64,000 bases of DNA. Origin: Escherichia coli. GTDB lineage: Bacteria > Pseudomonadota > Gammaproteobacteria > Enterobacterales > Enterobacteriaceae. Below are positions 52,396-58,218 of this stretch, piece after piece; positions within the stretch are counted from its first letter, which is position 1; each line of letters begins with the position of its first letter. A program made the translations under genes and the position numbers. The notes below the pieces were generated by a model that ran no database searches, had not been told where the DNA came from, and saw only the letters and a list, made by a program, of their open reading frames with translations. The DNA lies in the NCBI RefSeq assembly GCF_048403405.1, contig NZ_CP183129.1. One strand, given 5' to 3'.

Positions 52396-53385
52396 ATGCA
52401 GGGTTCTGTGACAGAGTTTCTAAAACCGCGCCTGGTTGATATCGAGCAAGTGAGTTCGACGCACGCCAAGGTGACCCTTGAGCCTTTAGAGCGTGGCTTT
52501 GGCCATACTCTGGGTAACGCACTGCGCCGTATTCTGCTCTCATCGATGCCGGGTTGCGCGGTGACCGAGGTTGAGATTGATGGTGTACTACATGAGTACA
52601 GCACCAAAGAAGGCGTTCAGGAAGATATCCTGGAAATCCTGCTCAACCTGAAAGGGCTGGCGGTGAGAGTTCAGGGCAAAGATGAAGTTATTCTTACCTT
52701 GAATAAATCTGGCATTGGCCCTGTGACTGCAGCCGATATCACCCACGACGGTGATGTCGAAATCGTCAAGCCGCAGCACGTGATCTGCCACCTGACCGAT
52801 GAGAACGCGTCTATTAGCATGCGTATCAAAGTTCAGCGCGGTCGTGGTTATGTGCCGGCTTCTACCCGAATTCATTCGGAAGAAGATGAGCGCCCAATCG
52901 GCCGTCTGCTGGTCGACGCATGCTACAGCCCTGTGGAGCGTATTGCCTACAATGTTGAAGCAGCGCGTGTAGAACAGCGTACCGACCTGGACAAGCTGGT
53001 CATCGAAATGGAAACCAACGGCACAATCGATCCTGAAGAGGCGATTCGTCGTGCGGCAACCATTCTGGCTGAACAACTGGAAGCTTTCGTTGATTTACGT
53101 GATGTACGTCAGCCTGAAGTGAAAGAAGAGAAACCAGAGTTCGATCCGATCCTGCTGCGCCCTGTTGACGATCTGGAATTGACTGTCCGCTCTGCTAACT
53201 GCCTTAAAGCAGAAGCTATCCACTATATCGGTGATCTGGTACAGCGTACCGAGGTTGAGCTCCTTAAAACGCCTAACCTTGGTAAAAAATCTCTTACTGA
53301 GATTAAAGACGTGCTGGCTTCCCGTGGACTGTCTCTGGGCATGCGCCTGGAAAACTGGCCACCGGCAAGCATCGCTGACGAGTAA
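52396..53385 (+). CDS. rpoA: DNA-directed RNA polymerase subunit alpha
   Basis: 329 aa. Confidence 0.98.
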
Positions 53386-53401
53386 CCGGATCACAGGTTA
53401 A

Positions 53402-53809
<408 letters not shown>

Positions 53810-53822
53810 TCTGAAGCAACGT

Positions 53823-53850
53823 AAAAAAACCCGCCCCGGCGGGTTTTTTT
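53823..53850 (+). terminator. terminator after rplQ (alpha operon)
   Basis: Hairpin aaacccgcc-ccggcgggttttttt. Confidence 0.7.
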
Positions 53851-53915
53851 ATACCCGTAGTATCCCCACTTATCTACAATAGCTGTACTCTTTTTGTTCA
53901 TCCCCTGGAGTATTT

Positions 53916-54284
53916 ATGTGGTTACTTGACCAGTGGGCAGAGCGTCATATTACTGAGGCACAATCCAAAGGTGAGTTTGATAATCTTCCGGGAAGTGGCG
54001 AGCCATTGATTCTGGATGATGATTCACACGTGCCACCGGAATTACGTGCGGGGTATCGCTTGCTGAAGAATGCCGGTTGCTTACCGCCAGAACTTGAGCA
54101 GCGGAGGGAAGCAATACAGCTTCTGGATATCCTCAAAGGTATCCGTCATGATGATCCGCAATATAAAGAGGTTAGTCGTCGATTGTCATTACTGGAATTG
54201 AAGCTGCGACAAGCTGGATTGAGTACCGATTTTTTACGCGGCGATTATGCTGACAAGTTGTTGGACAAAATCAACGATAACTAG
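53916..54284 (+). CDS. yhdN: DUF1992-family protein YhdN
   Basis: 122 aa ORF. Confidence 0.8.
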   Translation: MWLLDQWAERHITEAQSKGEFDNLPGSGEPLILDDDSHVPPELRAGYRLLKNAGCLPPELEQRREAIQLLDILKGIRHDDPQYKEVSRRLSLLELKLRQAGLSTDFLRGDYADKLLDKINDN

Positions 54285-54294
54285 TGGAGTATGT

Positions 54295-54720
54295 ATGTAT
54301 CGCATTGGTGAGCTGGCAAAAATGGCAGAAGTAACACCCGACACGATTCGTTATTACGAAAAGCAGCAGATGATGGAGCATGAAGTGCGCACCGAAGGTG
54401 GGTTTCGCCTGTATACCGAAAGCGCTCTCCAGCGATTGAAATTTATCCGCCATGCCAGACAACTTGGTTTTAGTCTGGAGTCGATCCGCGAGTTGCTGTC
54501 GATCCGTATCGATCCTGAACACCATACTTGTCAGGAGTCAAAAGGCATTGTGCAGGAAAGATTGCAGGAAGTCGAAGCACGGATAGCCGAGTTGCAGAGT
54601 ATGCAGCGTTCCTTGCAACGCCTTAACGATGCCTGTTGTGGGACCGCCCATAGCAGTGTTTATTGCTCGATTCTTGAAGCTCTTGAACAAGGAGCGAGTG
54701 GCGTTAAGAGTGGCTGTTGA
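54295..54720 (+). CDS. zntR: MerR-family Zn(II)-responsive regulator
   Basis: 141 aa from MYRIGELAK (MerR HTH); C-terminal Cys cluster. Confidence 0.9.
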   Translation: MYRIGELAKMAEVTPDTIRYYEKQQMMEHEVRTEGGFRLYTESALQRLKFIRHARQLGFSLESIRELLSIRIDPEHHTCQESKGIVQERLQEVEARIAELQSMQRSLQRLNDACCGTAHSSVYCSILEALEQGASGVKSGC

Positions 54721-54775
54721 TTTTTTGCACTGACAGGATTACACTCGCGCCGTTAAATAACCAACTGGAGTTTTT

Positions 54776-54994
54776 ATGAGCCGATATCAGCATACTAAAG
54801 GGCAGATAAGGGATAATGCGATAGAAGCATTACTACATGATCCCTTATTCCGACAGCGAGTAGAGAAAAATAAGAAAGGGAAAGGCAGTTACATGCGAAA
54901 AGGAAAACATGGCAATCGGGGGAACTGGGAGGCCAGTGGCAAGAAAGTAAATCACTTTTTTACCACTGGCCTTCTGCTTTCAGGCGTTTGTTAA
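54776..54994 (+). CDS. arfA: alternative ribosome-rescue factor A
   Basis: 72 aa, [10 protein letters not shown]...; 3' stem-loop within the coding region. Confidence 0.85.
54931..54971 (+). promoter_or_regulatory. stem-loop in the arfA 3' coding region (candidate RNase III processing site)
   Basis: Inverted repeat ggccagtgg (54931-54939) / ccactggcc (54963-54971). Confidence 0.55.
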
Positions 54995-55401
54995 GAGCGG
55001 TTATTCTGCTCTTTCAGCAAATCACGAATTTCTGTCAGTAATACTTCTTCTTTAGTTGGTGCTGGTGCGGCTGCTGGTTCTTCTTTTTTCCGATTCAGTT
55101 TGTTGATTAGCTTAATCGCCATAAAGATGGCAAAGGCCACAATCAGAAAATCAAAGACGTTTTGAATGAAGACACCGTAATGCATCACAACAGCAGGGAT
55201 ATCCCCCTGCGCATCGCGTAGCGTGACAGCAAACTGTTTAAAGTCGATCCCGCCAATTAATAAGCCCAGAGGTGGCATGATGATATCGGCAACCAGTGAA
55301 GATACAATCTTCCCGAATGCCGCACCGATAATGACACCCACCGCCAAATCCACCACGTTCCCGCGCATCGCAAATTCGCGAAATTCTTTAATAATGCTCA
55401 T
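54991..55401 (-). CDS. mscL: large-conductance mechanosensitive channel
   Basis: 136 aa, matches MscL. Confidence 0.96.
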
Positions 55402-55530
55402 GTTATTCTCCCTATGAAGCCGACAACCATAAGTCTAACAAATGTTAAGCCATTTTCCTGCCAGGAATGAATTTAATTAATCCTTGATAATCAAAGGGAA
55501 ATAATAAGGCGTCATTAGACGCCTTATTAA

Positions 55531-56907
55531 TTACAAGAAGAAAGGGCTTGGCTGGAAGAGTCTTTCGACGTCGGTAATAAACTTTTTATCTGTGAGGAAC
55601 ATAATTACGTGATCGCCTTGCTCAATGCGCAGATTGTCATTGGCAATCATCACGTCGTTTCCACGTACCACCGCTCCAATAATCGTTCCTGGCGGTAGCT
55701 TGATTTCATCAATGACTCTGCCGACAACGCGTGAGGTACTTTCATCACCGTGAGCAACGGCTTCAATAGCTTCTGCTACGCCGCGGCGCAATGAGGAAAC
55801 ACCAACAATATCTGCTTTTCGCACATGGCTAAGCAACGCGGAAATCGTTGCTTGTTGCGGTGAAATCGCAATATCGATCACGCTCCCCTGAACCAGATCC
55901 ACATAAGCGCGACGCTGGATCAATACCATCACCTTTTTCGCACCCATACGTTTGGCGAGCATGGCTGACATGATATTGGCCTCGTCATCGTTGGTGACGG
56001 CAATAAACAGATCAACTTGATCGATATGTTCTTCGGCCAGCAGTTCTTGATCCGACGCATCACCAAAAAAGACGATCGTATTCTGCAACTTTTCCGCCAG
56101 TTCGGCAGCGCGTTGCTGATTACGTTCGATGAGTTTAACGCTGTAATCTTTTTCCAGACGACGCGCCAGCCCTGCACCGATATTACCGCCACCAACCAGC
56201 ATGATCCGCTTATACGGTTTTTCCAGTCGCTGTAATTCACTCATCACCGCGCGGATATGCTGTGAAGCGGCAATAAAGAACACTTCATCACCAGCTTCAA
56301 CAATGGTCGAACCTTGCGGACGAATGGGGCGATCGTGGCGGAAAATTGCTGCCACACGAGTATCGATATGTGGCATATGTTCGCGCATGGTCGAAAGTGC
56401 ATTACCAATCAGCGGGCCGCCATAATAGGCTTTAACCACAGCGAGGCTGACTTTACCCTCAGCGAAGTTCACCACCTGCAATGCGCCGGGATACTCAATC
56501 AGTCGGTAAATATTATCGATAACCAACTGCTCTGGTGCGATCAGATGATCAATCGGTACAGCATCTGAATGAAATAGCTTATCGGCATCGCGCACGTAGT
56601 CTGGTGAGCGGATACGAGCGATGCGATTAGGGGTGTTGAAAAGTGAGTAGGCTACCTGGCAGGCAACCATATTGGTTTCATCTGAACTGGTTACAGCAAC
56701 CAGCATATCGGCGTCGTCGGCACCTGCCTCCCGCAATACGCGTGGATGAGAGCCATGCCCCTGCACGACTCGCAGGTCAAATTTATCCTGCAAGGTCCGC
56801 AGACGCTCACCGTTGGTATCGACAACAGTAATATCGTTGTTCTCGCCAACCAGGTTTTCCGCCAGTGTGCCGCCAACCTGGCCGGCACCCAGAATGATAA
56901 TTTTCAT
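55531..56907 (-). CDS. trkA: Trk K+ uptake system NAD-binding protein
   Basis: 458 aa with two Rossmann GxGxxG motifs. Confidence 0.96.
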
Positions 56908-56928
56908 CAGTCGCGACCCGTTATCTCA

Positions 56929-58218
56929 TCACTTTTTGATTAGCTTAGCGTAAAAGAAGCCGTCGCCCTCTTCGGCACCAGGCAGATTTTGCTTACCCGG
57001 TTGTTCTGGTGTTCCTGTTTCGCAAAGTTCGGCATCAGCGGTACGTTGCAAAAAGGCTTTAATCTGCAGGCTATTCTCTTCCGGTAACACCGAACAGGTG
57101 GCATAGACCAGGGTTCCACCGGATTTTAAATGCGGCCAAATGGCGTCGAGAATTTCAGACTGCAATTGCGCGAGTTCCGGGATATCGCGATCGCGACGTA
57201 ACCATTTAATATCCGGATGGCGACGAATCACACCGGTTGCTGAACAAGGCGCATCTAATAAAATGCGATCAAACTGTTGCTCGCCACACCATTGGGAAGG
57301 GTAGCGGCCATCACCTTGTTTCACGGTCGCCTTCATACCAAGGCGTTTTAAATTGTCGTAAACGCGAGAGAGGCGCTGTTCGTCAATATCAACCGCAACA
57401 ACCTGCGCTTCTGGTGCCACCTCAAGGATATGCGTTGTTTTACCGCCGGGGGCGGCACAAAGATCCAAAATGTGTTCACCGTTTTGTGGCGCAAGCCAGC
57501 TCATGCAACCTTGTGCTGATGCATCCTGAACGGTAACCCATCCGTCTTCAAAACCAGGTAGCGCATGAACAGGTGCAGGTGTTTCCAGCCGTACAGCATC
57601 AGGGTAATCCGCATGCGGGAAACCTTTCATTCCTGCTTCATCCAGCAATGCAAGCCAGCTGTCGCGGGAATGATGCGTACGATTAACGCGCAGCCACATT
57701 GGCGGACGCTGGTTATTGGCTTCGACGATGGATTGCCACTGCTCTGGATACGCTTTTTGCAGACGCTTCAGCAACCAGGAAGGATGCAGATAACGTGCAT
57801 CACTGGCATTAAACTCGGCTAATAACTCTTCTTGCTGACGCTGGAACTGGCGTAATACACCGTTTATCAACCCTTTAAGTTGCGGGCGCTTAATTGCGAT
57901 AGCGCCTTCAACCGTTTCAGCCAGCGCAGCATGAGGTGGTATGCGGGTATAAAGCAGTTGATACAAACCAACCATAATCAGGTAATGCACAGTGCGCTGT
58001 TTGCCGGTCATCGGACGGGCCATTAACTTATTAATCAGCCAGTCTAACTGTGAAAGCGTACGCAGTACGCCAAAGCACAACTCTTGAAGAAGTGCTTTGT
58101 CTTTATCGGAAACTTTTTGCTGGAGCGGTGGCAGAATGTTGCTTAATGATTGCCCTTGCTCGACGACTTGTTCAACGGCCTGGGCCGCCATGCTACGTAA
58201 ATTACGTTGTTTTTTCAT
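56929..58218 (-). CDS. rsmB: 16S rRNA m5C967 methyltransferase
   Basis: About 429 aa from MKKQRNL start; SAM-dependent MTase motifs. Confidence 0.93.

Follow-up and report, generated by a model that had tools for sequence, protein, structure and literature searches.

The 64,000-nt stretch of Escherichia coli contig NZ_CP183129.1 analysed here (the window) contains, at 54776-54994 on the plus strand, a short open reading frame with an inverted repeat close to its 3' end. The question raised by this locus is whether the repeat is the regulatory stem-loop known from arfA, and whether it is kept for arfA, for the convergent mscL gene, as a transcription terminator or for no RNA-level function at all. 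The locus is very probably E. coli arfA with its known autoregulatory 3'-coding hairpin. The hairpin is an already known element that has been described and annotated, and nothing new in itself. What is added here is a quantitative account, from 81 Enterobacteriaceae sequences, of nucleotide-level selection on the stem, the finding that distant arfA genes (most without a detected mscL) share this architecture, and a C195 allele with a slightly stronger stem than in K-12.

The arfA gene and its hairpin

[quoted passage not shown] The 351 nt at 54700-55050 are 100% identical to six E. coli chromosomes among the matches listed, and since the gene is annotated as arfA there, it is judged from this identity to be E. 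coli arfA and no mere homologue, as the first-pass annotation had named it. The region is present in 5425/5426 complete E. coli genomes, with arfA, mscL and zntR annotated. Relative to K-12, arfA in the window has 6 nt and 2 aa differences (K12R and A71V), and the two amino acid changes lie outside or after the stem. A GGAG at 54767-54770 (+), 5 nt 5' of the ATG, is the likely Shine-Dalgarno sequence by reading of the sequence.

The upstream neighbours of arfA are rplQ, yhdN (DUF1992/DJC28_CD) and zntR (MerR family). Downstream, mscL lies convergently at 54991-55401 on the minus strand (open reading frame list; Pfam MscL, E=2.4e-47), followed by trkA. The stop codons of the two genes overlap within TTAA at 54991-54994 (TAA at 54992-54994 on the plus strand for arfA and at 54993-54991 on the minus strand for mscL), and the overlap of the two coding sequences ranges from 0 to 65 nt among 80 relatives. 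A candidate arfA promoter was read by eye at 54717-54745 (TTGATT, 17-nt spacer, TACACT), overlapping the end of zntR. It matches at 8/12 positions, which is below what the promoter scan reports, and no arfA promoter was called in the terminator and promoter scan. One of the 5434 places at which the arfA region was found in E. coli is on a plasmid record, and one Enterobacter hormaechei ArfA cluster carries the label '(plasmid)'; such entries may reflect rare mobilisation of the gene or a replicon that was assigned wrongly.

The inverted repeat had been described as a perfect 9-bp one in the last codons of arfA. The two 9-mers, GGCCAGTGG (54931-54939) and CCACTGGCC (54963-54971), are indeed exact reverse complements, but the perfect run is 10 bp long (54930-54939/54963-54972) and is the core of a 26-pair hairpin. 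The location within the arfA 3' coding region holds, although 'last codons' is a loose description, as the 9-bp arms cover codons 52-55 and 63-66 of 72 and the hairpin as a whole covers codons 49-69. Folding of 54900-55000 using RNAfold, which had been proposed as a check, gave a stable hairpin (dG -40.1 kcal/mol, z=-5.31, 0/200 shuffles as stable). It is the single dominant one in this fold and extends over 54921-54981 (+), which is arfA nt 146-206 in the published coordinates, with its 26 pairs arranged as 4+14+8, two 1x1 mismatches and a 5-nt loop. The conserved lower stem has its 5' arm at 54927-54939 (+; alignment columns 17-29) and its 3' arm at 54963-54975 (+; columns 53-65), each containing one of the 9-mers. 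The apical part at 54941-54961 (+) is formed by a helix (54941-54948/54954-54961) and the loop (54949-54953). A U-rich tract, TTCTGCTTT, borders the G+C-rich stem on its 3' side at 54972-54980 (+), and the tract's columns 62, 63, 69 and 70 are invariant or nearly so in the Enterobacteriaceae alignment. By translation, a hydrophobic C-terminal tail is encoded from the 3' arm onward; its destabilising role is taken from the literature.

The stability of this structure was compared with chance and with the constraint imposed by the protein. When loops of 3-40 nt were allowed, 25 perfect 9-bp inverted repeats were counted in the window, while dinucleotide-shuffled sequences gave 7.8 +/- 2.7. A 9-bp inverted repeat alone is not unusual; the complete hairpin is far beyond chance. 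Its 63-nt core (-34.0 kcal/mol) is stabler than all 18,268 63-nt stretches sampled on both strands of the 64-kb window. The informative control was the synonymous recoding of codons 49-69, in which 0/3000 uniform and 2/3000 usage-weighted recodings folded as well; the structure is therefore not dictated by the encoded protein. Permutation of codons within each amino acid gave 107/3000 sequences as stable and is a weak control because the stem-forming codons are retained.

The hairpin occurs once in the window and at a median of one place per E. coli genome. A repeated extragenic palindrome or other dispersed repeat was ruled out, the element being single-copy and inside a coding sequence. An Rfam scan of 53000-57000 with E values up to 1 placed no family on the hairpin (54900-55000).

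Comparison with the K-12 element

The stem-loop of K-12 arfA (yhdL, b4550), with its regulation by RNase III and tmRNA, was described by Garza-Sanchez et al. 2011 and Chadani et al. 2011 (summarised in PMC3989581 and PMC8012679). The hairpin in the window is in the same gene, at the same locus and at the same position (nt 146-206; PMC10070815). It is identical to that of K-12 at 62/63 bases, with the same fold and the same hydrophobic tail, and the statement in the first-pass annotation that the architecture is preserved was confirmed. The one differing base is nt 195, which is C here and T in K-12 and turns a G.U pair (54932-54970) into G-C, so that the 63-nt fold is about 2.7 kcal/mol stabler here (-34.0 vs -31.3 kcal/mol). 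Among complete E. coli genomes, the 61-nt hairpin was found in 2753 at an identity of at least 99% and in 2672 at 95-99% (5425/5426 in total).

In K-12, RNase III cuts within the arfA stem to give a non-stop mRNA, and as long as trans-translation is not saturated, the ArfA product receives an SsrA tag and is degraded (PMC3989581, PMC8012679), which agrees with the earlier claim that RNase III cleavage leaves a non-stop arfA mRNA and that ArfA is made mainly when tmRNA rescue is limiting. The level of arfA mRNA rises strongly when rnc is disrupted or when the stem is broken by synonymous mutations, and both tagged and untagged ArfA have C-termini that agree with the RNase III site (PMC3989581). 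Two further points of the K-12 mechanism were absent from the first-pass annotation, namely premature termination at the hairpin and an antisense action of the 3' fragment on the mscL 3' UTR. Without RNase III, a truncated arfA mRNA ends just 3' of the repeat, and this was attributed to premature termination; full-length ArfA is unstable owing to its hydrophobic tail (PMC3989581, PMC8012679). Cleavage was mapped to arfA nt 165/166 and 189/190, with products of nt 166-189 and nt 190-stop (approximate sizes ~24 and ~30 nt), and the 3' fragment released in this way works as an antisense RNA against the mscL 3' UTR (PMC10070815).

When transferred to the window, the first published cut lies between 54940 and 54941, so that codons 1-55 remain. 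The segment at 54776-54940 (+), which ends at Gly55, is thus the putative coding part of the RNase III-truncated non-stop mRNA according to PMC10070815 and the K-12 annotation of yrdG. On the present fold, the two quoted cuts have a 3-nt stagger and not the canonical 2-nt one, the published fragment sizes being approximate. In the K-12 RefSeq record, the final 54 nt of arfA are annotated as an ncRNA, yrdG (b4846), 'arfA-derived small regulatory RNA'. The yrdG segment (Morra et al. 2023, PMC10070815) corresponds exactly to 54941-54994 (+) here, where an equivalent 54-nt RNA would be antisense to the mscL 3' UTR; mscL is likewise convergent with overlapping stops, and there is no structural difference.

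For this strain, we infer cleavage, termination and tagging from the near-identity to K-12 and the published experiments. RNase III would cut the stem after arfA nt 165, some transcripts would also terminate just 3' of the stem, and by either route the arfA mRNA would be left without a stop codon. Ribosomes would stall at the non-stop end, and rescue by tmRNA-SmpB with addition of a proteolysis tag would leave little ArfA. With trans-translation saturated or absent, untagged and C-terminally truncated active ArfA (~55 aa) would be released and would rescue stalled ribosomes together with RF2. The loss of codons 56-72 is not expected to be inactivating because ArfA truncated at Asn47 stays functional (PMC5378476); the hairpin, at codons 49-69, lies beyond the residues required for activity. 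The rare full-length ArfA, with its hydrophobic tail, would be unstable. The excised fragment (54941-54994) would pair with the overlapping mscL 3' UTR and lower mscL mRNA. Read in this way, arfA is a textbook example of deliberate expression from an mRNA without a stop codon, by which a backup factor is made only when tmRNA fails.

Conservation in Enterobacteriaceae and in distant arfA genes

A scan with one genome per species gave 80 Enterobacteriaceae loci, which together with the window make 81 sequences, 79 of them distinct. All 80 loci were aligned over the hairpin region without indels. The 14 bases GAGGCCAGTGGCAA (54929-54942, columns 19-32) are invariant in 81/81 sequences, including four synonymous sites. 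The consensus structure keeps 13+3+4 pairs; scored against the complete E. coli structure, 91.8% of cells are paired over the 79 distinct sequences, and pairing drops to 43-64% on shifting the 3' partners by 1-3 columns. Within the 13-pair core, each substitution changes G-C to G-U and preserves pairing. The apical closing pair (54948-54954) is C-G in 44 and U-A in 30 distinct sequences, a compensatory switch.

Codon usage gave the same picture at the level of synonymous sites. Over most of codons 2-49, the third position has an entropy of 0.5-1.9 bits; the value falls to zero at codons 52-55, and to zero or nearly so at codons 60 and 62-66. The four-fold sites of Ala53 (GCC, 81/81), Gly55 (GGC, 81/81), Thr63 (ACC) and Thr64 (ACT) are fixed in 79-81/81 sequences, whereas at the other Ala, Gly and Thr codons of arfA every synonym is used (all four for Ala and Gly). 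The alignment thus shows selection at the nucleotide level on the hairpin stem throughout Enterobacteriaceae. The scarcity of variation in the core leaves little covariation to support its pairs, and could also stem from constraints other than the arfA hairpin, such as the mscL 3' UTR on the other strand.

On the 3' side of the hairpin, the open reading frame ends at 68-93 codons and the sequence is unrelated among relatives; this variable end fits a rarely translated region. In several genera (L018, L027 (Salmonella), L038, L040, L076, L077 and others), the annotated open reading frame continues to 80-93 codons with the stop displaced after the hairpin, and such extended arfA frames overlap mscL by up to 65 nt. 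One arfA copy (L033) is on a 383-bp contig, NZ_CACSJJ010000125.1, labelled Arthrobacter sp. 18067. The C-terminal half of its ArfA differs at a single residue from the Raoultella terrigena counterpart (L034), and the copy is almost certainly a contamination of the Arthrobacter assembly.

At 80/80 Enterobacteriaceae loci, mscL is convergent and its stop codon lies at a distance of 4-19 nt from the base of the stem, so this set cannot separate a role in arfA from one in mscL. [quoted passage not shown] All seven arfA genes have a strong 3'-coding hairpin (z -2.5 to -6.6), which begins a short distance 3' of the conserved KGKGSY...K region and precedes the stop, and the hairpin sequences are unrelated to the enterobacterial one. 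An MscL neighbour was detectable at 1/7 of these loci; at the other six, no MscL match was found in the DNA recovered, in which the downstream flank was ~100 nt for L088 and ~725 nt for L087. The hairpin thus belongs to arfA itself, since it is present at the seven distant loci, six of them without detected MscL; in enterobacteria, mscL has it in common with arfA.

In four of the distant genes (L084, L085, L086 and L087), the hairpin is followed by U runs, like an intrinsic terminator. Schaub et al. 2012 reportedly found that the arfA hairpins of other proteobacteria act as intrinsic terminators. Like those, the hairpins at the seven distant loci lie in the 3' coding region, where such a structure strips the stop codon from the mRNA. 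The four that carry clean U runs are shorter; the E. coli hairpin, by contrast, is a long substrate of RNase III with interruptions in its U tract.

Alternative explanations for the hairpin

The terminator-like hairpins of the distant genes bear on a reading of the E. coli hairpin as mainly an intrinsic terminator inside the open reading frame, with RNase III secondary and the non-stop arfA mRNA produced chiefly by termination. A G+C-rich stem followed by a conserved U-rich tract would suit such a role, as would the clear U runs in the four distant genes and the truncated mRNA that ends just 3' of the repeat even in the rnc mutant (PMC3989581; reviewed in PMC8012679). The E. coli U tract, however, is interrupted (6 U of 9) and is itself paired in the lower stem, and the hairpin was not among the calls of the consensus terminator scan. 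The stem of 22-26 bp is long, as is typical of an RNase III substrate, and unnecessary for termination. The increase of arfA mRNA on rnc or stem mutation and the match of the protein C-termini to the RNase III site (PMC3989581) also point to cleavage, and termination as the chief route is considered unlikely.

The palindrome could instead serve primarily mscL, by stabilising its 3' UTR, terminating its transcription or providing an RNase III site, and be incidental in arfA. Read on the minus strand (54930-54972), it forms an mscL 3'-UTR stem-loop that starts 19 nt after the mscL stop and folds nearly as well in RNAfold (-32.2, z -4.95). The constant convergent position of mscL close to the stem base and the extreme invariance of the core, which fits a constraint from both strands, are in keeping with such a function, and in vitro the mscL 3' UTR is an RNase III substrate, a small RNA derived from it having been reported (PMC10070815). 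Yet no U tract follows the minus-strand stem, the distant arfA genes have their hairpin mostly without a detected MscL, and the published phenotypes of stem mutations directly concern arfA mRNA and ArfA protein (PMC3989581), which makes a primary role in mscL very improbable. A chance palindrome, or a by-product of the amino acids encoded (ASG ... TTG) with no RNA-level function, could draw on the 25 perfect 9-bp repeats of the window and on the conserved residues EASGK and FTTGL encoded by the arms. It is refuted by the recoding control and by the frozen synonymous sites, against which comparable codons elsewhere in arfA are free; this part of the protein is, moreover, dispensable, as the activity of the Asn47 truncation indicates (PMC5378476). 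Its probability is close to nil.

With the autoregulatory arfA hairpin as the preferred reading, the frozen core may point to something further. The core GAGGCCAGTGGCAA is invariant without compensatory change while distant arfA genes use unrelated hairpin sequences, which suggests, tentatively and with more doubt than conviction, a sequence-specific constraint beyond hairpin stability. Plausible candidate causes are RNase III recognition determinants, or the duty of both strands as arfA hairpin, mscL 3'-UTR hairpin and antisense pairing partner. If true, the arfA-mscL overlap would be one co-evolved bidirectional module and not two independent signals, a view partly anticipated by Morra et al. 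2023 (PMC10070815).

Other palindromes were noted around the gene. A second inverted repeat is located in the 5' half of arfA (54806-54818/54836-54848, 13 nt, 92% complementary, codons 11-25), with 12/13 positions paired here, 11/13 in K-12 and typically ~7/13 across the 81 Enterobacteriaceae sequences. It is not conserved, being poorly paired in relatives, and was set aside as probably due to chance or lineage-specific. Directly 3' of the trkA stop and upstream of mscL, a terminator-like hairpin at 55502-55529 (-) with 12 pairs (TAATAAGGCGTC...) and a T-rich tail is probably the trkA terminator. A palindromic, A/T-flanked region at 53787-53895, just 3' of rplQ, had Rfam matches on both strands (STnc370, isrK, istR and Leu_leader), all below the gathering score, and is most likely a bidirectional terminator ending the rplQ operon.
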